Origin: Candidatus Kaiserbacteria bacterium
GTDB lineage: Bacteria; Patescibacteriota; Minisyncoccia; Phycocordibacterales; UBA2100
Reading direction: 5' to 3'
Length of the DNA stretch: 44,773 nucleotides
NCBI GenBank assembly: GCA_043747375.1
Contig: JAYTPG010000058.1
Location: 1-44,773, forward strand
Below the pieces are notes generated by a model. That model was not told where the DNA came from and did not search any database. It worked only from the letters and a program-made list of their open reading frames with translations. This document shows, in pieces, positions 28,363 to 38,466 of this stretch. Every line of letters starts with the position of its first letter. The first letter of the stretch is position 1. The translations under genes and the position numbers were made by a program.

Positions 28363-28680
28363 ATGTCAAAAAAAAGTAGTAAGAAAGTTTCGGTCATGCC
28401 ACTTGGCGACCGAGTGTTAGTAAAGCCTGAGGTGACAGAAAACGAAAAAAGCGTTTCCGGAATTATTATTCCCGACAGTGCTAGACAGGAAAAGCCGGAG
28501 CAAGGCGAAGTGATTGCAGTTGGTGAAGGCCGACGCAACGAACGAGGAGAGCTTATCCCTATGCGAGTGAAAGTGGGGCAGACCATCATGTTCGAGAAAT
28601 ACTCTTTCACGACAATCAAAATAAATGATGAGGAGTGCCTCGTTGGTCCCGAAGCAAGCATTTTAGCAATCATTCAATAA
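28363..28680 (+). CDS. groES: Co-chaperonin GroES
   Basis: PLGDRVLVKP...GEVIAVG.... Possible alternative start at M12 (28396). Confidence 0.95.
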   Translation: MSKKSSKKVSVMPLGDRVLVKPEVTENEKSVSGIIIPDSARQEKPEQGEVIAVGEGRRNERGELIPMRVKVGQTIMFEKYSFTTIKINDEECLVGPEASILAIIQ

Positions 28681-28692
28681 AGCAGCTGTCAT

Positions 28693-30345
28693 ATGGCAAA
28701 ACAAGTAATTTTCGACGCAGAAGTACGCAGCGCTCTTAAAAGAGGTGTAGATACGGTCGCAAATGCCGTGAAAGTAACGATCGGTCCTCGTGGTCGCAAT
28801 GTCGCACTCGATCGTTCATGGGGCTCTCCCGTCATAACGAACGATGGTGTATCAATTGCAAAAGAAATCACTCTCAAAGACAAATTTGAAAATATGGGCG
28901 CGGCAATCGTGAAAGAAGTCGCTACGAAGACGAATGATAAAGCGGGCGACGGCACCACGACCGCAGTTGTACTTATGCAGGCTATCGTGCACGAAGGTTT
29001 GAAGCGCACCGCGCTCGGCGCAAATGCCATGATGGTTCGTCGTGGCATCGAAGCTGGCGCAAAAGCGGCAGTTGAAGAACTGAAAAAAATGGCAAAACCG
29101 ATTTCGGGAAAAGACGACATCCGTCAAGTTGCGACTATTTCTGCAGAGAGTGAAGAGCTTGGAAAAACGATTGCGGACACCGTTGAAAAAGTAGGGAAAG
29201 ACGGCGTTGTCACTGTTGAGGAATCACAATCGCTTGGTATTGAAGCCGAATACGTCGAAGGCATGGAATTCGACAAAGGATATGTTTCCGCATACATGAT
29301 TACCAATGCTGACCGCATGGAGGCTGAGGCGCGAGACGCATCAGTCCTGGTTACCGACAAAAAGATTTCTGCGATCAAGGATATTCTTCCAGTCTTAGAA
29401 AAAGTTGCGCAAAGTGGCAAACGAGATCTTGTCATTATTGCGGACGATGTTGACGGAGAAGCACTCACTACATTTGTCGTTAATAAACTGAAAGGAGTTT
29501 TCAACGTGCTCGCGATCAAAGCTCCTGGTTATGGCGATCGAAAGAAAGAGATGCTTCAAGATATTGCAATTACCCTCGGTGCACAATTGATTTCTGACGA
29601 CCTCGGAATGTCGATGGAAAAAATAGACTTGAACATGCTCGGAAAAGCAACGCGAATCGTTGCGACGAAAGATTCGACCGTGATTGTTGGCGGCAAAGGA
29701 AAAAAAGCGACCATCGAAGAACGCGTTGCTTCTTTGCGAAAGCAACTTGATCAGACGGATTCTAAATTCGACAAAGAGAAAATCGCCGAGCGAATTGCGA
29801 AACTCACGGGCGGTGTCGCCGTCATTCGAGTTGGCGCGGCCACCGAAACAGAAATGAAATACTTGAAAGACAAAATCGAAGACGCGGTAAACGCAACCAA
29901 GGCTGCGATTGCAGAAGGCATCGTCCCTGGCGGAGGCGCGGCACTCGCAAAAGTGGGTGAAAAACTCGCAAAAAAGCTTGATCCGAAAGCGCACGATGAA
30001 TACACGGTGGGCTATCGGATTCTGCTCACTGCACTTTCTGCTCCTCTTCTTCAGATTGTAAAAAATGCAGGGCGCGAAGACGGCGCGGTCATTTTGCGGG
30101 ACGTGGTGGCGAAAGGTCCGGCCTGGGGTTTTGACGCATCAAGTGAATCAAATGAATACGAGCTGGTTGATATGTACGAAGCGGGGATTATTGACCCGGT
30201 GAAAGTCACTCGTAGCGGCGTAGAAAATGCAGCTTCAGCGGCGGCTGTGCTTCTCACCACGGAAGCAGCAGTTGCTGATCTTCCTGAACCGAAGGCTGCT
30301 CCAGCTGGGGGCCAAGGCGGAATGGGAGGCATGGACATGGACTGA
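28693..30345 (+). CDS. groEL: Chaperonin GroEL
   Basis: AKQVIFD...GPRGRNV...DGTTTA...C-terminal GGMGGMDMD. Confidence 0.98.
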   Translation: MAKQVIFDAEVRSALKRGVDTVANAVKVTIGPRGRNVALDRSWGSPVITNDGVSIAKEITLKDKFENMGAAIVKEVATKTNDKAGDGTTTAVVLMQAIVHEGLKRTALGANAMMVRRGIEAGAKAAVEELKKMAKPISGKDDIRQVATISAESEELGKTIADTVEKVGKDGVVTVEESQSLGIEAEYVEGMEFDKGYVSAYMITNADRMEAEARDASVLVTDKKISAIKDILPVLEKVAQSGKRDLVIIADDVDGEALTTFVVNKLKGVFNVLAIKAPGYGDRKKEMLQDIAITLGAQLISDDLGMSMEKIDLNMLGKATRIVATKDSTVIVGGKGKKATIEERVASLRKQLDQTDSKFDKEKIAERIAKLTGGVAVIRVGAATETEMKYLKDKIEDAVNATKAAIAEGIVPGGGAALAKVGEKLAKKLDPKAHDEYTVGYRILLTALSAPLLQIVKNAGREDGAVILRDVVAKGPAWGFDASSESNEYELVDMYEAGIIDPVKVTRSGVENAASAAAVLLTTEAAVADLPEPKAAPAGGQGGMGGMDMD

Positions 30346-30367
30346 TAATTCGAAAATGGTGAATGCA

Positions 30368-30399
30368 ATACGGCCACCCGAAGGGCGGCCGTATTTTTG
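30368..30399 (+). terminator. Intrinsic terminator of groESL
   Basis: ATACGGCCaCCC-gaa-GGGcGGCCGTAT followed by TTTTTGT. Confidence 0.85.
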
Positions 30400-30605
30400 T
30401 GGATGCCAACTCAATAAAAACAGGAAACGCAAGAAGGACAAAAAAAGAAATAACTGTACACATCTTGGTCGACCGTCCGAAATGTGTACAGAGTAAATAA
30501 TGCAAACAATGTGGTACAAGGTTTTTTTAAACCCCATTGTCAAGGCGACGCCTTGACATGGCTAGACCCGAACCCGTTTAACGAGAATTCATTGCAATAT
30601 GTTTT

Positions 30606-30848
30606 TCAATACCTGAAATTCGCGACATCAACATGTCTATATTCTTTTGCATAGCCAAACACAGTTCGCATTTGTTCCGTCAGTGCCGCGATTGCTTTTG
30701 TGTTCTCTGTAATTTGAGATTGTAAATCGAGACGCAGTTGTCGCAAATCTTCTTTTGTGGCAAGAGTGGACATGGTCCCGCGCATCGAAGGCATGTTCTC
30801 TTGCATGTCAGTCACAATTTCCAGTATTTGTTTAGTTCCTTTGTCCAT
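30606..30848 (-). CDS. Hypothetical 80-aa coiled-coil protein
   Basis: Minus-strand TATAAT (30860..30855) lies exactly 6 nt before the ATG. Heptad-like TKEDLRQLRLDLQSQITENTKAIAALTEQ. Confidence 0.5.
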   Translation of the reverse strand: MDKGTKQILEIVTDMQENMPSMRGTMSTLATKEDLRQLRLDLQSQITENTKAIAALTEQMRTVFGYAKEYRHVDVANFRY

Positions 30849-30854
30849 GAAGAA

Positions 30855-30860
30855 ATTATA
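30855..30860 (-). promoter_or_regulatory. -10 box TATAAT, 6 nt before ATG 30848 (leaderless-type)
   Basis: Minus strand gaatcTATAATttcttcATG. Confidence 0.5.
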
Positions 30861-30904
30861 GATTCAATTGTATTTCTTGCACCCTTTCAGCCAGGCTGTT
30901 TTCA

Positions 30905-30913
30905 TGTTATAAT
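30905..30913 (+). promoter_or_regulatory. Extended -10 promoter TGtTATAAT of the 35-aa peptide gene
   Basis: TGtTATAATACTAGAC. Nearly identical to the box at 31173-31191 (TGgTATAATACTGGcAGAC). Confidence 0.5.
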
Positions 30914-30963
30914 ACTAGACCTGTCAGGGTCGACAGTGAACATTGTAAGGAAAGGTTATTTCC

Positions 30964-31071
30964 ATGACCTGGTTGGACAAACTTGGACTTGTAATACTTT
31001 TTCCCATAGCAGTCTCGTACCTTGCGGCCGCGCTACATCGTGGTGGTGTCGCCTGGCGACATAAATGGTAA
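30964..31071 (+). CDS. 35-aa single-TM peptide (below the ORF-track size cut-off)
   Basis: aaGGAAAGG Shine-Dalgarno 9 nt before the ATG. MTWLDKLGLVILFPIAVSYLAAALHRGGVAWRHKW. Has its own extended -10 upstream and a 12-bp perfect terminator directly downstream. Confidence 0.5.
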   Translation: MTWLDKLGLVILFPIAVSYLAAALHRGGVAWRHKW

Positions 31072-31097
31072 AAAAGAAAATAAGTTCCTCCCTCAAG

Positions 31098-31139
31098 CGT
31101 CCAGATGCATTGGGCTGCATCTGGACGTTCTTTATTGTT
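31098..31139 (+). terminator. Intrinsic terminator of the 35-aa peptide gene
   Basis: CGTCCAGATGCA-ttgggc-TGCATCTGGACG followed by TTCTTTATTGTT. Confidence 0.85.
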
Positions 31140-31153
31140 AGAAAGGGCAGCTG

Positions 31154-31181
31154 TTGATTATTTCTGATAATTTGGTATAAT
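31154..31181 (+). promoter_or_regulatory. Promoter TTGATT-16-(TGg)TATAAT of the 76-aa gene
   Basis: -35 at 31154-31159, extended -10 at 31173-31181. Confidence 0.55.
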
Positions 31182-31229
31182 ACTGGCAGACTAGAGCTCT
31201 TAACCACGCGTTGAAAGGACGCTCGGAAA

Positions 31230-31460
31230 ATGACGAAGCTCACGCTTCTCGGAGTATCGCTTTTTGTGACTATTGTGCTTTGTGCACAAGGGGCACAGGA
31301 CTGCATTTTCAGTGACGGAGGAGAGAAATGGTATTGTCCCGCGGGATTTTCATCAATGGAGGGTCACCCTCCCCGCGACAACATCGTCAAATCTTTTCTT
31401 CCCACGGAAGATGCGTCTCCGCGACAAGATCGCGAGGACATCGAAGCGAAAAGAAGCTAA
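31230..31460 (+). CDS. 76-aa secreted small protein (signal peptide, Cys-containing mature part, charged tail)
   Basis: aAAGGAcgctcggaaaATG. MTKLTLLGVSLFVTIVLCAQG..DCIFSDGGEKWYCPAGF. Has its own promoter and terminator. Confidence 0.55.
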   Translation: MTKLTLLGVSLFVTIVLCAQGAQDCIFSDGGEKWYCPAGFSSMEGHPPRDNIVKSFLPTEDASPRQDREDIEAKRS

Positions 31461-31466
31461 TGCAAA

Positions 31467-31508
31467 AGAGGCGCACGTTGAATAAACGCTGCGCCTCTCG
31501 AGTTTTTT
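31467..31508 (+). terminator. Intrinsic terminator of the 76-aa gene
   Basis: AGAGGCGCA-N14-TGCGCCTCT followed by cgagTTTTTT. Confidence 0.75.
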
Positions 31509-31566
31509 GGAACGTAAGAATCTCGCTTTGGTTATTCCCATATAAATAATTCAGCCCGAAAACCGG

Positions 31567-31575
31567 TGCTAGAAT
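31567..31575 (+). promoter_or_regulatory. Candidate extended -10 TGcTAGAAT for the giant gene
   Basis: ggTGcTAGAATtgattcttgtagtttcatATG. The predicted leader is about 12 nt. Confidence 0.35.
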
Positions 31576-31593
31576 TGATTCTTGTAGTTTCAT

Positions 31594-34500
31594 ATGCGGA
31601 TGTCACAAGGCACTTTTCGAAATCTTTCTAAAATCATTTTTGTCTTGAGTTTTGCTATTTTTTTTCTAGGCGCTCCTACGTCGTTTGTTTTTGCCGGGAG
31701 CGGAAATGCAGCGTGTGTAGGCGGGGATTATTCATGTGAATATCCTGCAAAGAAACAGCCTAACATCAACTCCTCTGCAACTGTTCAGTGTATGCAAAAG
31801 AAGCCCTGTCAGGACACTGCGGCAGGGGCAATCACTAATGGATTTTGCAAATCTGATGGCGTTTGTTCTGCCGAAACAACTGCTCTGAAAGATGACAAGC
31901 AACAAAAAATCCAGCAGGTCTCTAAGGACGCTCTCGATGGGGCGACGCCAAAAACTCAAGGTCGTCTTGGTGATTCTCCAAGCACTGATGCTGAGCCAGG
32001 CTCACCTCTAAACAACGGCACAACACAATCGACTGTTGATCTAAAAGGTGACTACAATCCTCCACCGGAAAGCACGGCCAATAATTTCCCAAAGGCCGGC
32101 AGTTCGCCGGATGTTACCGCTGATCCAGGCCCTAATACTCCCTTGAAGCCGGGCACGGGCGAAACAACGATCGAAAAAGCGGTGGATGGAAACCCGTCAA
32201 AAGGATTTTCGAGATGGGCAAATTTGGTCGGTGATATTTTTTCCATGCCGATTTTCGGCGGCGGCGGGAGTGGTTTTGGTGGTGGCTCGATGGACGGTGG
32301 TTTTTTTGGTGACAGTAGCGGTGGCTTAGGTGGCGGTTCATTTTATTCCGGCACAACTGGATTTACTAGTGGAGGCGGCGTTCCCGTAGGTCAGTCAGGT
32401 CAACTCCCCGGGTATGGGAAAGCGGGAGCAGATTCATTTGTCACTGGTCCTTGCCTAAACGGAAGTTGTATAGCAAAAAATGGAATACCAGCAGGTGTTG
32501 CACAAAATCCCGTGGTACCACAACAATCGAGCATCGCTTCGCTTATGGAGCAGGGGAAACAGGCGATAGCAAATGGTTTTCCAAGCTTCCCGCAGAACGC
32601 ATTCGAGAGTTTTAAAATTCCAGAAATTGCTCAACTCTCAAATCAGGGAAACTCATCAGCGTTTTTGACTGACGTCCCAGGCACGAGCCTATCTTTTCCA
32701 CAATCCGACGTTTTTGGAAATACCGTTCTTGCAGAAAACGGCCTAGTCCAGTCCGACGCGAGCCTTATTCCTCGAACAGGAGATGGGGGAGATATCTCTC
32801 AAAAAGCAGCAGACTACAACGCAGGTATCGATAAGATAAATCAAGATGTCGCGGCGACTCGAAAGGAGTTTCTCGCGTCTCATCCAGGATGTAACGCATC
32901 CGACGCGTGTGTTCAGGAGTTGTACAGGAAAATTTCAGAAGTCCAGAATAAGGGTTTCTCAGATCCGAATCTTGGTGATCCTCTAAGTACCGTCGTAGAT
33001 GAGGCGAACAAGCAGAATATTCACGACAGCGCAGCACAAGCGGGCAGATCTTCGAGCGAATATTTACTCAGCAAATATGGGGTTACCCCGGCCCAGGTGC
33101 AGCAAGGAGTAACTGAAACAGGAAGCATTGGCCCGCGGTCTGAAAACACCAATCCGGTTCCCGGGATTACCGTAAGTACCGAAAATCCCACGGGCCAATC
33201 TGCGCCAGGAGCCGTTTCTGCAGACCAATTTAACGTCACTGCAGAAAATCAGCCAACCATTTTTGAGGCGGCACAAAAAACAGCCGGGGATGGGTTCCAA
33301 AGTCTAAAAGAAAACGCATCAAACGCTTTTGAAAATGTGAAGTCCGGTGTTCGGTATGCCTATAATGAGTACACTCCGTTTGGTTCTCCCACCGCGAACG
33401 GAAATCAAATCGCGAACGATGCAAATATTTCTCCGAGTATTCTTGACGCTAATGTGGGCAACTCCCCGCTTGCTCCAGGGAGTCTTTTTACTGAATCAGA
33501 CCTTCAGGCTGCACGTGGTGCGGATCAGATACTGGGGCGGACTTCCCAAGGAGGAAGCACTTTAAGTGAGTCTCCACAGAATCCAAATTTTTCCGCAGAA
33601 CCGAAACTTACGGACGTCGCTGGCATCCAGGTAGATAAAGCTCTTACAGGAAAAGAGATAACGGGGAGCTCTTTTGCCGAAGCGTCCGGAATTATCTGCA
33701 AAGACCGCGGATGTGATGCTGGGTTTACCGCCAAGGCACTGGGAGGCAGTGCCGCGCAGGAGTCTAATTGGAATCCCAATAACTCCACGGGGTCATTTGA
33801 GGGAATAGGACAGCTTAATGACTCGGAGACAGGACGAGCGACTCGTTCTCTAGAAAAGTTGGCCGCTGCGCCGAATTATTTAACAGAACAAGATCGTAAT
33901 ACAGTTCTTGGTGTTGTTGATGATATAAAAGCCTCAGAAGCCGCAGGAAAAAATCCAAATAACGATCCTCGACTTGGGGCGTGGCTTATGACGGCTCGGC
34001 AGGCTGATTTATCGGGACTCGGTAAAAATGTGAGTGGAATTGACGCGGCGAATGAGTTTGCCGCAGGAGATGCTAAAACAGGAGCCGCCGTGATTCAATT
34101 GGGACAACTTGCACCAAGCGCACTGACTGGACCAGATGGATTTGATCCGGATAGGGCACTTACATCAAACGAACGATGGGCACTGCGAGTGAATTCTTTA
34201 CCGAGCATATCTAACGGGGATACGGTAGGTGACGCAATAAGTAAAATCGAAAATAGTCCGATTTACTCAAAGCATTTTGATCAGGGTATTGCGTGGACGA
34301 CGGCATATGCCCCTGATACTTCAGCCGTTCCGGAAAACATTGCTTCAAGCATAGATCGTTCGGGCTCCTCTTTAAATGGCTCTCGCGCTGCGAGTATTCC
34401 GTCTGACATTGCAAATACACCATGGAATTCAGAGGCACCGATTGTGGCATACGATCCTTCACTTAGCCCAAACGAAGTGCAGGCAAATGGTGCTGAAGAG

Positions 34501-36990
34501 TTTGTTTCAAAACGCATGTCAGCACCAGAGATGGCCGCTTCGGGGGCTAAGAATCAGGAGTTTGCAAACATCTCTTCTGGCGACTTTGCGGTGCGCGGAG
34601 TTACTGCAACGTCACCAGTTACCACTGATACACAAACACGGCAGGAGTTTATATTAAATGGGGAAAAAGCCCCCTCCGTTCAAGAGACTGATTCTAGAAA
34701 CGAAGTTGCAAATCTTGCGGCAGGAGAGACGCAAGGCAATAATCAAAATCCCGCGGCCGCCACGGGAGTGCCGTTTGCGCAAAAAAATGTTGCTTTAATG
34801 CCTCACACATACAGATATGATTCGAATACGGGAGAAATTATAGAGACCACCAATCCGCTCACGCTTTCAGAGGGCAAGCCAGTTAATTTTTCCAATGCTG
34901 AGCCGCCCACAGTGAATACTGTAAAACCCGGCTATTATGTTAAGGGTCCCCTCTGGCAATTCTCAGGACAAGATCAGATATTCGTCGGATCAACTCCAGA
35001 AATAGACTCTCCCGCAGGTCCGTCAGGAAGCCCTAGTGGTCCGGCGGCTTTCGGTAATTTGCCCGCAGTGCCTGTCGGGCAAGTAGAAATGTCTTCACTG
35101 GAACCGATTAATAGCCCACTTGGCAACAGCAATGCGATTGCAGAGTACCCGTCGCCATACCAGCTTAATAAGCCCGCCATACTTCAGGGCGGGAATGTCA
35201 ACGTAGCGCAAAATGGCGGCACAGGGCAATCTTTGACTGATTTCGGCGGTGCGCCCGATTGGTCGCGAAGATCGTTTGGGCCAAACCTTTCGGCCTCAGC
35301 TGAATCGCCAAAAGGTCCGGATGGTTTGCAGAATTTTAATGTTGCCCAAGAAGCTCCAATGCTTGCATATAATCGAGCGCGTGGGGCGATTCTAGAGGGG
35401 GACGCCACCCAAAACGGGGGAACATCGAATGGTGCTTACCGATTGGATTATGTTGCTTCAGAAAGCCAGTTTGCTAAATCGGCTTTTGGACCCAGCCTCG
35501 CTGTGGCCTTCCAGCCTGCTTCACAGCCTCTACCGAGTGACGTCTTGAGAGGCGATCGGATCGGACCAGATGCAAATGGTTTTGTTTCTGCTCAGAAAAG
35601 TGTTGGACCGGCGGGCCTGCCCGTTAACGGGCAATTTGGCTCACAGCTTCCAAGCCAGCAAGTCGCCGGAACTCCACGAGTGGCAGCCGGTAATTTTAAC
35701 GGGACATATTTGATTGCGGCAGATCGATCATTAAGTGACCCTTCTACACTCGAGAGACGACTCTCTTTTGTTGACGCAAATAAATTTTCTGCTCCCGATA
35801 GTGCGCCGAATTCTGTCGTAGCAAATCGGGATGCTGCACCACTCTGGAAACTTGGCTCATTTACTTCGCCGATTGGTGGGATGGCTGTCGATGTCCCACG
35901 TACGCCTGGTCTCACAGGCTCGCAGAGCGGAGAAGCCGTGCGAATTGGCTCCGCTCAAAACGGAGGCTCGGTGAATGGGTACATTGCGCAGGCGGTGAAT
36001 CAGCAGGGATTCACATCTGAGACCCATCCCGCATTGCCAGTCTTTAATCCCGCCGCAGGCGTCGCTGTTGCGAATGCACGGCCTGAGGGAACATCTCAAG
36101 ATTCATTCCAGCCCGCAAATAGTCCAGAAACAAAGGTGGCACAGCTCCCAGAAATTACTGTGGTGCAAGCTCAGTCTACGCAAACACAACATGCGCCAGC
36201 GGTATTTGCGAATCCACAGAATCCTGGGGCAAATGTTGTTGGCTTGGACAGAAACATACGACCAGCAGCTATTCCTGCGATTCTCGACGCGTCGAAAAAT
36301 CCTGCACCAGTTCACGTTGCGGCAAATATTCCTCCGCGAACTCCTCCTAGCACCGTACAAGCGAGCATGTTTGGCAATATGAATTTTGGTTCGCTCTTGA
36401 GTGGATTAACCGGAGCGCTTTCAAGCCTTTTTGGCTCCGGAAGCAAGAGTGCTTCGCCGTCGCAACCCGCCGCCCCGAAAGGGAAGCCGATTATTTCAGT
36501 CGTCGTAAATCCGTCGGTTGTTGAAAAAGGGAAAGGAACGACGCTCGCATGGGGAGGGGTAAATTGGAGTGATGAAGCTTCTACCAGGTGCGGCATCTTT
36601 GGACCAAACGGAAAAATATTTGAAGGAGGCATAAATGGGAAGACGACCACTTCGCCACTGACCCACACGAGTGAATTTGCCATTGCGTGTGTGGGCTTGA
36701 AGGCGCACGACAGCGCACTGCAAAGAATTGTTGTGCAAGTTTCGGGGGATTCAGGTGTTCCAACAAAAGCGGTAATCTCAGGGCAATTCTCCGGAGCGCA
36801 AGACAGCACAGGAATTAGCGCTGCAACGAACGGAACTGCGCAGAATACTTCTCCTCAGCAGACAGGATCCGTTTCTACGGGAGGCGTTACTCCTATTCCG
36901 CAAAGCCCAAACGAATCATGCAATCCTAATTCACCAAATTTCGTTGCATGTTTGGAGGCGCAGATGTCGCCGTCAGACAAGTTGTATTAA
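31594..36990 (+). CDS. 1798-aa secreted giant protein: Cys-rich N-module, Gly-rich tract, low-complexity N/Q/S/P/G regions, SLT-like motif, C-terminal Ig-like module
   Basis: Uninterrupted ORF. Signal-like IIFVLSFAIFFLGAPTSFVFA. AAQESNWNPNNSTGSFEGIGQL at nt 33751-33816. C-terminal KPIISVVVNPSVVEKGKGTTLAWGG...CG...FAIACVG at ~36484-36750. Confidence 0.85.
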   Translation: MRMSQGTFRNLSKIIFVLSFAIFFLGAPTSFVFAGSGNAACVGGDYSCEYPAKKQPNINSSATVQCMQKKPCQDTAAGAITNGFCKSDGVCSAETTALKDDKQQKIQQVSKDALDGATPKTQGRLGDSPSTDAEPGSPLNNGTTQSTVDLKGDYNPPPESTANNFPKAGSSPDVTADPGPNTPLKPGTGETTIEKAVDGNPSKGFSRWANLVGDIFSMPIFGGGGSGFGGGSMDGGFFGDSSGGLGGGSFYSGTTGFTSGGGVPVGQSGQLPGYGKAGADSFVTGPCLNGSCIAKNGIPAGVAQNPVVPQQSSIASLMEQGKQAIANGFPSFPQNAFESFKIPEIAQLSNQGNSSAFLTDVPGTSLSFPQSDVFGNTVLAENGLVQSDASLIPRTGDGGDISQKAADYNAGIDKINQDVAATRKEFLASHPGCNASDACVQELYRKISEVQNKGFSDPNLGDPLSTVVDEANKQNIHDSAAQAGRSSSEYLLSKYGVTPAQVQQGVTETGSIGPRSENTNPVPGITVSTENPTGQSAPGAVSADQFNVTAENQPTIFEAAQKTAGDGFQSLKENASNAFENVKSGVRYAYNEYTPFGSPTANGNQIANDANISPSILDANVGNSPLAPGSLFTESDLQAARGADQILGRTSQGGSTLSESPQNPNFSAEPKLTDVAGIQVDKALTGKEITGSSFAEASGIICKDRGCDAGFTAKALGGSAAQESNWNPNNSTGSFEGIGQLNDSETGRATRSLEKLAAAPNYLTEQDRNTVLGVVDDIKASEAAGKNPNNDPRLGAWLMTARQADLSGLGKNVSGIDAANEFAAGDAKTGAAVIQLGQLAPSALTGPDGFDPDRALTSNERWALRVNSLPSISNGDTVGDAISKIENSPIYSKHFDQGIAWTTAYAPDTSAVPENIASSIDRSGSSLNGSRAASIPSDIANTPWNSEAPIVAYDPSLSPNEVQANGAEEFVSKRMSAPEMAASGAKNQEFANISSGDFAVRGVTATSPVTTDTQTRQEFILNGEKAPSVQETDSRNEVANLAAGETQGNNQNPAAATGVPFAQKNVALMPHTYRYDSNTGEIIETTNPLTLSEGKPVNFSNAEPPTVNTVKPGYYVKGPLWQFSGQDQIFVGSTPEIDSPAGPSGSPSGPAAFGNLPAVPVGQVEMSSLEPINSPLGNSNAIAEYPSPYQLNKPAILQGGNVNVAQNGGTGQSLTDFGGAPDWSRRSFGPNLSASAESPKGPDGLQNFNVAQEAPMLAYNRARGAILEGDATQNGGTSNGAYRLDYVASESQFAKSAFGPSLAVAFQPASQPLPSDVLRGDRIGPDANGFVSAQKSVGPAGLPVNGQFGSQLPSQQVAGTPRVAAGNFNGTYLIAADRSLSDPSTLERRLSFVDANKFSAPDSAPNSVVANRDAAPLWKLGSFTSPIGGMAVDVPRTPGLTGSQSGEAVRIGSAQNGGSVNGYIAQAVNQQGFTSETHPALPVFNPAAGVAVANARPEGTSQDSFQPANSPETKVAQLPEITVVQAQSTQTQHAPAVFANPQNPGANVVGLDRNIRPAAIPAILDASKNPAPVHVAANIPPRTPPSTVQASMFGNMNFGSLLSGLTGALSSLFGSGSKSASPSQPAAPKGKPIISVVVNPSVVEKGKGTTLAWGGVNWSDEASTRCGIFGPNGKIFEGGINGKTTTSPLTHTSEFAIACVGLKAHDSALQRIVVQVSGDSGVPTKAVISGQFSGAQDSTGISAATNGTAQNTSPQQTGSVSTGGVTPIPQSPNESCNPNSPNFVACLEAQMSPSDKLY

Positions 36991-38150: not shown

Positions 38151-38178
38151 TTGTAAATATTAATATTCGTGATATAAT
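38151..38178 (+). promoter_or_regulatory. Promoter TTGTAA-16-(TGa)TATAAT of the 81-aa gene
   Basis: -35 at 38151-38156, extended -10 at 38170-38178. Confidence 0.55.
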
Positions 38179-38220
38179 ATATTCGTCGTAGTAGCAACAT
38201 ATAGATTAGAGGAGGCGCAG

Positions 38221-38466
38221 ATGCGCTTTGTTATTGTTTCTGCAATGGTTCTCAATGCAGCTACTCTGCCGACTTTGGCCGATCACGCGATCGAACCAAA
38301 AGTCGCCATTGTGCGGCAAGCAGAAGCTAAACCCGACATCGTCCGCAAGGAAAATTCGGAGCAATGCAAAAATGTCGTTATGAATCTCTACGATCCAAAC
38401 GGCAAATGGGCAGGGCTCAAGGTGACCTTCGGTTGCCTGAGTGAAAGCGGCGATTACCAAAACTAG
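38221..38466 (+). CDS. 81-aa secreted small protein (two Cys)
   Basis: GGAGG Shine-Dalgarno 6 nt upstream. Signal peptide MRFVIVSAMVLNAATLPTLADHA. Has its own terminator. Confidence 0.55.
   Translation: MRFVIVSAMVLNAATLPTLADHAIEPKVAIVRQAEAKPDIVRKENSEQCKNVVMNLYDPNGKWAGLKVTFGCLSESGDYQN

Follow-up and report, generated by a model that had tools for sequence, protein, structure and literature searches.

The 1.25-kb spacer between groEL and the gene of a giant surface protein contains three small units, each with its own −10 promoter and a strong terminator made of a hairpin and a U-run. The window is the whole stretch of DNA analysed here (44,773 nucleotides), and the host is an ultra-small CPR bacterium with a Kaiserbacteria/Paceibacteria-type genome. 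We lean towards the reading that the spacer consists of three monocistronic units, namely a decaying copy of a coiled-coil gene and two orphan small genes, which likely encode young envelope peptides. The first-pass annotation had described three autonomous micro-genes upstream of the giant gene. Three units with their own signals were found, but the minus-strand ORF80 is not intact, as it is frameshifted. Transcription and translation of the units, and likewise the membrane topology, are predicted from the DNA.

The groEL gene ends with an intrinsic terminator at 30367–30402 on the plus strand (hairpin 30367–30395 and a U-run; inverted repeat I2; −19.6 kcal/mol, z = −2.5). The terminator hairpins of the three small units show folding z-scores from −3.8 to −4.4, and they are followed by U-runs. 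The extended −10 box TGnTATAAT is present at 39 sites in the genome, and two of them are located within the island (about 0.07 expected, an estimate from base composition). According to a script count, 20 of the 39 sites directly precede the start codon of an ORF of at least 50 codons. A second class of these sites has leaders of 32–55 nt, including genes read as rpoA, gyrB and infB. Since extended −10 boxes are uncommon in this genome and most of them look functional, and all three units end in hairpins, it is reasonable to infer that the three small units are expressed independently.

The GC content of the island is 43.8%, compared with 47.9% for the genome and 49–50% for the flanking genes, and these values bear out an earlier impression by eye that the island is more AT-rich than its flanks. 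The non-coding parts have a GC content of 41.7%, and ORF35 and ORF76 have 50.0 and 50.6%, respectively. Thus, the low GC content of the island is explained by its non-coding parts alone. Across the island, the sequence is 100% identical in five other assemblies, which come from several samples; the only differences seen, in one assembly (L012), lie at the 3′ end of groEL. Therefore, purifying selection (Ka/Ks) is not measurable. No match to the island DNA was detected in 40 relatives. In relatives, groEL is followed either by a large secreted-protein gene within 70–315 nt or directly by lemA. This arrangement indicates that the island is, by comparison with these genomes, a species-specific and variable stretch. 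The whole block including the giant gene varies between species. A search of the island against Rfam detected no RNA family.

The minus-strand coiled-coil gene

ORF80 is located at 30606–30848 on the minus strand. The −10 box TATAAT at 30860–30855 lies exactly 6 nt before the ATG (TATAAT-TTCTTC-ATG), as reported earlier, and would give a leaderless mRNA start. The codon score of ORF80 is 0.075, which is higher than that of 98% of false ORFs. The 80-aa coiled-coil ORF had thus been placed correctly, but the gene is not intact. An extra T at position 30641 on the minus strand (GAA-T-ATA-GAC), inside the invariant GYAKEID motif, causes a frameshift and moves the conserved C-terminus out of frame. 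The same base is present in the five other assemblies.

ORF80 is intact at the N-terminus, where the family motif M-D-x-x-T-K-x-ILEIVT-x-x-Q reads MDKGTKQILEIVTDMQ; the family profile matches at 1.1e-30, over positions 1–61 of 78 only. The frame then reads GYAKE-YRHVDV..., and the stretch IDMLMSRISGIEKHI / I-D-M-L-M-S-R-I-S-G-I-E-K-H is found in the next frame. The invariant G-[YF]-A-K-E-I-D and L-M-x-R-x-x-x-x-E are not present in the frame of ORF80. According to the alignment with the family C-termini, the conserved C-terminus (IDMLMSRISGIEKHIAMNSR and then a stop) is encoded at 30578–30640 on the minus strand, in the +1 frame relative to ORF80. This out-of-frame segment matches one family member (P0003) by BLASTP with E = 1e-7 and 58% identity over 19 aa. 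Because the GYAKEID...LM-R motif is not in frame, ORF80 is regarded as a disrupted family member, and its product is probably truncated and inactive. A programmed frameshift at 30641 was also considered, and it was rejected on inspection, as GAA-T-ATA has no slippery site.

An intrinsic terminator for the ORF80 transcript is located at 30440–30491 on the minus strand. Its hairpin CTGTACACAT...ATGTGTACAG (30454–30491; inverted repeat I1) is followed by UUAUUUCUUUUUUUG. The folding energy is −17.7 kcal/mol (z = −3.8), and none of the shuffles folds as well. This terminator is an addition to the signals in the first-pass annotation. In the proposed mechanism, a leaderless mRNA would run from the TATAAT box to this terminator, and the one-base insertion at 30641 would cut off the invariant C-terminal motif and give a truncated product. 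The minus-strand unit would then represent a small stand-alone coiled-coil gene, of which this copy is decaying.

The family of ORF80, named here after the GYAKEID motif, consists of proteins of about 75–115 aa from CPR bacteria and Alphaproteobacteria (172 cluster representatives at E < 1e-3, 25 at E < 1e-10). The family motifs are K-x-ILEIVT...Q and G-Y/F-A-K-E-I-D-x-L-M-x-R, of which G-A-K-E-I-D is invariant in the alignments. ORF80 shares with the family the N-terminal motif, a heptad-like central helix and the leaderless layout TATAAT-N6-ATG, and its relatives are 59–62% identical. It differs from them in the one-base insertion, which removes the I-D...L-M-x-R...E C-terminus from the frame, and in a 10-aa insertion (PSMRGTMSTL) after residue 19. 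The leaderless layout is also observed in eight family members from both CPR bacteria and Alphaproteobacteria (L066–L070, L072, L073 and L081), with the −10 box 6–8 nt before the ATG. The AlphaFold model of an intact relative (P0004) is one long helix with a pLDDT of 90.6. No curated Pfam or NCBIfam family matches at its cut-off. The nearest library entry is phrog_25353, which has no assigned function, and the similarity to Pfam DUF2730 is weak and below the threshold. Conserved neighbours of the family genes were not detected.

Translation starts and the two plus-strand units

A leaderless start is the norm at gene starts in this genome. A TANNNT motif 5–9 nt before the ATG is found at 39% of long ORFs, compared with 6% in the background (22–39% for the TATAAT-type layout). 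Shine-Dalgarno-like motifs are found upstream of 11% of starts, which equals the background of 11%, and at 7% of operon-internal genes. Leaderless gene organisation is known from Actinobacteria and Deinococcus (GeneMarkS-2 paper, PMC6028130; survey of leaderless genes, PMC3160421). The −10 box 5–9 nt before the ATG, as in that organisation, is dominant here and is present at ORF80. Unlike in those leaderless systems, the operon-internal genes of this genome also show no enrichment of Shine-Dalgarno motifs. In the bin, a 16S 3′ fragment has GGATTCATTCC rather than GGATCACCTCC at its end; this fragment may not belong to the organism.

ORF35 and ORF76 do not have the leaderless layout that dominates this genome. 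For ORF35, a GGAAAGG Shine-Dalgarno sequence had been put forward in the first-pass annotation. Since gene starts here show no enrichment of such motifs, this argument carries no weight. The promoters of the two units had also been suggested to be a duplicated module. The similarity stops after TGnTATAATACT, and its local alignment score of 19 is reached by 8% of shuffles (15.1 ± 2.3). In the downstream 12 nt of the two promoters, 5 of 12 positions are identical, which is ordinary among the extended −10 sites of the genome. The proposed duplication is not upheld by these values.

ORF35 (30964–31071, plus strand) is a candidate 35-aa single-pass membrane peptide, an orphan without annotation, with a transmembrane segment at about residues 7–24 and a basic/aromatic C-terminal tail. 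The peptide given in the first-pass annotation was confirmed, as were the extended −10 box and the perfect 12-bp terminator. The extended −10 promoter TGTTATAAT is located at 30905–30913, and the predicted transcript starts near 30920 with a leader of about 44 nt. The intrinsic terminator at 31096–31141 on the plus strand has a 12–14 bp stem followed by UUCUUUAUUGUU (−23.8 kcal/mol, z = −4.4; inverted repeat I4, 100% complementary). The perfect 12-bp inverted repeat is formed by 31098–31109 and 31116–31127 and is followed by a U-rich run.

The helix LGLVILFPIAVSYLAAAL of ORF35 has a mean hydropathy of 2.35. The codon log-likelihoods of ORF35 (0.077) and ORF76 (0.075) are in the range of true genes and above those of 97–98% of off-frame ORFs, and all alternative ORFs in the island give noise-like codon scores. 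Among shuffles of the predicted ORF35 transcript, 0.08% contain an ATG-initiated ORF of 30 aa or more with an 18-residue window as hydrophobic as that of ORF35. Genome-wide, four other ORFs of this kind are present, where 0.85 are expected. Compared with intergenic and Markov-null ORFs, ORF35 ranks in the top 3.5%. The statistics of a 35-codon ORF are weak, and a reader seeking such ORFs selected this one post hoc.

Neither in 115 genus genomes nor in 400 of the order did any homologue of ORF35 reach E ≤ 0.01, and a word-based search of 5.8 billion proteins with its 40-aa stop-to-stop frame gave no match. A second copy was not detected in this genome, and the ORF is not called as a gene anywhere in the public collection. 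Searches of ORF35 and ORF76 against Pfam, NCBIfam, PHROGs and PADLOC also gave no match. The description of ORF35 as an unannotated membrane peptide is plausible; the codon score and the hydrophobicity statistics speak for a real gene. We regard ORF35 as probably a real small membrane protein.

Known bacterial small membrane proteins from short ORFs include AcrZ, MgrB, MgtS, KdpF and CydX. Like such proteins, ORF35 is shorter than 50 aa, combines one hydrophobic helix with a short charged tail, forms a monocistronic unit and was missed by annotation. It differs from these five in showing no sequence relationship to them, no conserved partner and no conservation within the genus. The unit combines an extended −10 box, a leader of about 43 nt and a separate terminator, and it would give a 35-aa single-pass membrane peptide, for which the positive-inside rule predicts an N-out/C-in topology.

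ORF76 (31230–31460, plus strand) is an orphan 76-aa protein with a putative N-terminal signal peptide, C25 and C36 in the mature part, and a charged tail. This agrees with the earlier description of a signal-peptide protein with a Cys-containing mature part. The promoter at 31154–31181 consists of TTGATT, a 16-nt spacer and TGgTATAAT (10 of 12 matches, TG present). The intrinsic terminator is at 31467–31508, and its hairpin (31467–31498; −21.1 kcal/mol, z = −3.8) is followed by UCGAGUUUUUU. A TTTTTT run directly follows the hairpin. Both the promoter and the terminator had been recognized before. ORF76 is called as a gene in public annotations and belongs to the top 0.1% of the Markov null. 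The maximum hydropathy of an 18-residue window at its N-terminus is 2.04. As read directly from the sequence, the N-terminus (MTK / LTLLGVSLFVTIVLC / A-Q-G) fits a Sec signal peptide, for which a basic residue in the n-region, 10–15 hydrophobic residues in the h-region and small residues at −3/−1 are expected. The signal is not a lipobox, as L precedes C.

In the 115 genomes of the genus, no genuine homologue of ORF76 was found, and the search of 5.8 billion proteins returned only ORF76 itself. The JGI metagenomes gave nothing, and the genome has no paralogue. The single match in the genus (E = 3.6e-4) lies antisense inside a 415-aa FAD-dependent monooxygenase-like ORF and was rejected as a chance match. 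Neither the 81-aa secreted protein encoded at 38221 nor the N-termini of the giant proteins of relatives showed similarity to ORF76. We are fairly confident that ORF76 is a real gene. The unit likewise has an extended −10 box, a leader of about 43 nt and a separate terminator, and it would produce a Sec-exported peptide of about 54 aa that may contain one disulfide and has a charged tail. Conservation of the two reading frames in relatives, by which the first-pass annotation would have had them judged, was not observed, as the searches returned no homologue of either ORF; the frame of ORF80 is itself broken by an indel.

It is possible, but in our view unlikely, that ORF35 (ORF76 less probably) is not translated. 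The units would then be small non-coding RNAs or transcriptional noise, and the frames would be present by chance. The lack of conservation anywhere fits such a reading. Some ATG-ORF of at least 30 aa appears in 13% of shuffles of the 176-nt transcript, neither ORF has the typical leaderless start, Shine-Dalgarno motifs are not used, and the neighbouring ORF80 is itself decaying. However, the codon score, the coding-like GC content and the hydrophobic helix are jointly unlikely by chance. No Rfam family was detected, neither leader shows significant structure (z = −1.2 and −0.2), and the rank of ORF76 among null ORFs also argues for translation. ORF35 and ORF76 most likely serve as young envelope peptides within a rapidly evolving cell-surface locus, and not as toxin–antitoxin or bacteriocin components.

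Other readings of the island

The island might be an eroded remnant of a small mobile element or a prophage fragment that brought ORF80 and its neighbours, but we consider this improbable. Intact relatives of ORF80 match phrog_25353 (E = 9e-7), and one homologue has small ORFs and a SocA_Panacea gene in its vicinity. A repeated element, the 22-bp perfect palindrome TTGTCAAGGCGaCGCCTTGACA at 30537–30558, marks the island's left edge; the genome has three copies of it, of which one is inserted in frame in trmD. The GC content of the island below that of the genome points in the same direction, but it is accounted for by the non-coding parts, as described above. No flanking direct repeats were found, and the spacer contains no integrase, transposase or tRNA gene. 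Family members searched by tblastn against phage and plasmid collections gave no match, and they have no conserved neighbours.

ORF35 and ORF76 immediately precede the giant gene and share its strand, in a block that varies as a whole between species. They could on these grounds be accessory factors of the giant secreted protein (holin-like, chaperone-like or an immunity peptide), as the first-pass annotation proposed for the secreted product. We consider this very unlikely. Each unit has its own terminator and is thus not co-transcribed with the giant gene. In relatives with a giant gene after groEL, the gaps of 70–315 nt contain no such small ORFs and no similarity, and the N-terminus of the giant protein is itself signal-peptide-like by eye. 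Within the genus, a related giant gene is thus already known without the peptides. With 35 aa, ORF35 is also far below the size of holins, all of which are, to our knowledge, far larger. It has its own terminator and is not coupled to an endolysin without an export signal.

A type I toxin, damaging the membrane and repressed by an antisense or adjacent small RNA, was another suggestion for ORF35. Type I toxins include Fst, TisB, Ldr, AapA1 and others. ORF35 is like them in its size (below about 60 aa), its single transmembrane helix, its basic/aromatic C-terminal tail and its strong promoter and terminator. A weak −10-like TATTAT at 31182 on the minus strand might drive an antisense RNA covering the 3′ end of the unit. 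However, this candidate has no −35 box, TG extension or terminator of its own, and no convincing antisense promoter was found. ORF35 matches no toxin family in Pfam, NCBIfam, PHROGs or PADLOC, is present in a single copy, and has no significant self-inhibiting fold in its leader. The same architecture is common to many harmless small membrane proteins, and we regard a type I toxin as very unlikely. The related suggestion that ORF76 is a bacteriocin-like factor does not agree with its N-terminus, which is a hydrophobic Sec-type signal MTKLTLLGVSLFVTIVLCAQGA and not the double-glycine leader of a class II bacteriocin precursor. Such a precursor would have a C39-peptidase ABC transporter or an immunity gene nearby, and none of the ORFs listed from groEL to the giant gene resembles either. 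No evidence points to a toxin or bacteriocin nature of ORF35 or ORF76. It is also very improbable that ORF35 is a membrane-active peptide (type I-toxin-like or holin-like) with ORF76 as its secreted partner, both newly born in a hypervariable host-interaction locus of a CPR episymbiont and working with the giant protein; if true, this would be the first toxin-like short ORF described in the lineage, as we know of none described before.

Meaning for the lineage

These findings do not alter a major open question. They define a widespread, unnamed leaderless coiled-coil family, and they describe a 22-bp palindrome that behaves like a Rickettsia-type in-frame insertion element. Leaderless starts without a Shine-Dalgarno signal have to be considered when genes are called in such genomes. 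Should ORF35 and ORF76 be translated, they would join a growing list of tiny, lineage-restricted CPR envelope peptides missed by annotation. The stretch downstream of groEL would then be a fast-turnover site at which surface and host-interaction genes are gained and lost.

Three units between groEL and the giant gene

In genome G000 (867 kb, 81 contigs, 93% complete), of which the window is contig C58, groES (28363-28680) and groEL (28693-30345) are followed by a 1.25-kb spacer, a giant gene encoding a 1798-aa ORF (31594-36990), and lemA. The GC content of the spacer is 43.8%; the genome as a whole has 47.9%, and the genes on either side have 49-50%. Thus, the AT-richness that the first-pass annotation had judged by eye is real, and all the features it listed for this island were found at the positions it gave. 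On the minus strand, the 80-aa ORF (ORF80, 30606-30848) is preceded by the -10 box TATAAT (30860-30855), followed by TTCTTC and the ATG. A hairpin CTGTACACAT...ATGTGTACAG on the same strand (30454-30491, a TGTACA-centred inverted repeat; -17.7 kcal/mol, z = -3.8) is a fourth terminator, overlooked in the first reading. Since UUAUUUCUUUUUUUG comes next on that strand, the hairpin appears to terminate the ORF80 unit. On the plus strand, the 35-aa ORF (ORF35, 30964-31071) has the extended -10 box TGTTATAAT (30905-30913). On its 3' side lies an inverted repeat with two perfectly complementary 12-bp arms (31098-31109/31116-31127), which folds with -23.8 kcal/mol (z = -4.4 relative to shuffles) and precedes UUCUUUAUUGUU. 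The 76-aa ORF (ORF76, 31230-31460, plus strand) has the upstream promoter TTGATT-16-TGgTATAAT and a terminator hairpin followed by UUUUUU (-21.1 kcal/mol, z = -3.8). The distance from box to ATG is 50 nt for ORF35 and 48 nt for ORF76, and neither leader shows significant folding.

The two plus-strand promoters had been proposed to descend from a duplicated module. The sequence common to them is TGnTATAATACT only; their local alignment score of 19 (shuffles, 15.1 +/- 2.3) is attained by 8% of shuffles, and the identity just 3' of the box is ordinary among the other extended -10 sites of the genome. The duplication is not upheld by these results.

The spacer also contains a 22-bp perfect palindrome TTGTCAAGGCGnCGCCTTGACA (30537-30558), which has two further copies in the genome (C11:1077-1098, locus L003; C59:636-657, locus L004). 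One copy lies in frame inside trmD, where a loop is longer by about 7 residues (LSRRRLD); the extra residues are absent in 12 of 13 same-genus relatives. A degenerate copy is located in a coding region on contig C43. The palindrome resembles a miniature in-frame insertion of the Rickettsia-palindromic-element type.

Start signals in the genome

Non-overlapping long ORFs, a proxy for genes rather than a curated annotation, were used for the start-signal statistics. TANNNT is located 5-9 nt 5' of the ATG in 39% of the long ORFs and at 6% of random positions. Sites that agree with TATAAT in 5 or 6 of its 6 positions are found at that spacing in 22% and 1.7%, respectively. The base profile of the start region has T at -12 and -7 and A at -11, and it lacks a purine peak. 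The genome is predominantly leaderless. Since a -10 box near the ATG is enriched genome-wide, the TATAAT located 6 nt from the ATG of ORF80 represents the leaderless start usual in this organism. The genome has 39 TGnTATAAT sites; according to an automated count, 20 of them lie 4-10 nt before the start codon of an ORF with 50 codons or more. A second class of sites has leaders of 32-55 nt before long ORFs read as rpoA, gyrB and infB, and ORF35 and ORF76 fall in this rarer leadered class.

GGAG, GAGG, AGGA or AAGG is present at -18 to -5 in 11% of the starts, which equals the background. Among genes close behind a same-strand upstream gene, such motifs are not enriched either (7%, compared with 11% in a control window). 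Because Shine-Dalgarno motifs are not enriched here, GGAAAGG of ORF35 and GAAAGGA of ORF76 carry no evidential weight, and the support that the former had been thought to lend ORF35 is empty. One fragment of a 16S 3' end (C7:1-300; the contig, binned with this genome, is only putatively from the same organism) ends with GGATTCATTCC, not GGATCACCTCC, without the CCUCC anti-Shine-Dalgarno. This end would fit a loss of the anti-Shine-Dalgarno and is only a lead. In the main 16S copy (C28:476-1847, minus strand), several hundred bases are inserted after ...CTTGTACTC (roughly position 1390 in E. coli numbering), and the 3' part of the gene is cut by the contig end.

The ORF80 family

A word-based search with ORF80 gave three relatives at 59-62% identity; a further relative is encoded in a same-genus genome. 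In a profile search of 1.84 billion representatives, 172 matches were obtained at E < 1e-3, of which 25 also passed E < 1e-10. The matches are mostly 75-115 aa long and span the whole profile, whereas the window protein spans only positions 1-61 of 78. In the family alignments, the N-terminal motif is K-x-ILEIVT-x-x-Q and the middle varies in length; G-[YF]-A-K-E-I-D is invariant and precedes L-M-x-R-x-x-x-x-E. ORF80 ends with ...VFGYAKE and then YRHVDVANFRY-stop. In the next frame, IDMLMSRISGIEKHIAMNSR-stop (30640-30578, minus strand) matches the C-terminus of the relative P0003 with E = 1e-7. The frameshift is caused by one extra T at 30641 (GAA-T-ATA-GAC). No slippery sequence was found there on inspection; programmed frameshifting was therefore rejected, and the T is read as a mutation. 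The presence of an identical sequence in five other assemblies (ENA, Logan) speaks against an assembly error. The alignments identify ORF80 as a disrupted copy within a genuine family, and the lesion is probably recent because the C-terminal frame is still clean. The first-pass description of a coiled-coil ORF with TATAAT 6 nt from its ATG thus stands, but the ORF is not intact.

Pfam and NCBIfam yielded no curated name for the family, only sub-threshold coiled-coil noise; phrog_25353, of unknown function, matches the intact members (E = 9e-7). The AlphaFold model of the intact relative P0004 is one long helix (pLDDT 90.6). The family is found in CPR bacteria, including other 'Candidatus Kaiserbacteria', and in Alphaproteobacteria (loci L066-L082 for both groups); one contig (L069) carries two copies. 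Neither conserved neighbour genes nor matches in phage and plasmid collections were found. All members with a clear start have a -10 box 6-8 nt 5' of the ATG. The family is widespread, unnamed, stand-alone and consistently leaderless.

ORF35 and ORF76 in a variable locus

A codon log-likelihood score was trained on the long ORFs, as gene proxy, against their off-frames. ORF35 (about 0.078) and ORF76 (0.075) score like true genes, inside their distribution, and exceed 97-98% of off-frame ORFs, whereas the nine alternative island ORFs scored are all negative, within the false-ORF range or close to it. Ranked against intergenic ORFs and a Markov null, ORF35 falls within the highest 3.5%; ORF76 is within the highest 0.1% for the Markov null. 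Their GC contents (50.0% and 50.6%) are like those of coding DNA, compared with 41.7% for the non-coding parts of the island. When the predicted ORF35 transcript is shuffled, only 0.08% of the shuffles contain an ATG-ORF (30 aa or longer) in which some stretch of 18 residues equals LGLVILFPIAVSYLAAAL in hydrophobicity. A good codon score together with such a helix is found genome-wide in four other intergenic ORFs of 28-50 aa, against 0.85 expected, and ORFs of this class are mostly real. From these statistics, ORF76 is quite likely a translated gene, and the balance leans towards the same for ORF35, allowing for its having been picked after the fact. A minus-strand ORF of 68 aa (31387-31593), over the 3' end and terminator of ORF76, is among the public gene calls; it is probably spurious, since its codon score (-0.017) is nearer to noise than to genes.

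The first-pass annotation had suggested tracing the ORF35 frame in relatives. No relative was found at E <= 0.01, whether among 115 same-genus genomes (best E = 0.08), 400 genomes of the order or 5.8 billion proteins. ORF35 is single-copy, absent from the public protein collection and listed by no gene caller. ORF76 matched only itself in the protein search and nothing in JGI metagenomes; its sole genus match, antisense to a 415-aa ORF reading like a monooxygenase, was rejected. Another small secreted two-Cys protein (81 aa, 38170-38466) is encoded 3' of lemA with its own candidate promoter (TGATATAAT, 42-nt leader with AGAGGAGG); it shows no sequence similarity to ORF76.

The spacer DNA has no match in 40 relatives. 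Among 29 genomes of the genus, the typical follower of groEL is either a large ORF, 70-315 nt away and with an N-terminus resembling a signal peptide, or lemA directly, and the giant protein has only domain-sized pieces in common with its counterparts. Because of the missing spacer match and the different followers of groEL, the region is regarded as a variable slot, and the three units as peculiar to the species. Neither direct repeats nor mobility genes were found at the flanks of the units.

The adjacent position makes a link of ORF35 and ORF76 to the giant protein possible, as in the accessory role proposed earlier for ORF76; their separate terminators, and related giant genes in relatives without such peptides beside them, disfavour it. 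Neither ORF matches toxin, defence or bacteriocin families. A type I toxin is further disfavoured for ORF35 by its single copy, its leader without significant folding and the one antisense -10-like box being weak, and a bacteriocin-like ORF76 by its Sec-type signal in place of a double-glycine leader and by the lack of a transporter or immunity gene nearby.

The best-supported reading is that of a rapidly evolving envelope locus with three monocistronic units, each independent of the others. The first would be a leaderless coiled-coil gene inactivated recently, the second an orphan 35-aa single-pass membrane peptide, presumably N-out/C-in by the positive-inside rule, and the third an orphan Sec-exported peptide with two cysteines. 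These are of kinds already known: small unannotated membrane proteins, orphan genes in variable loci and leaderless starts.
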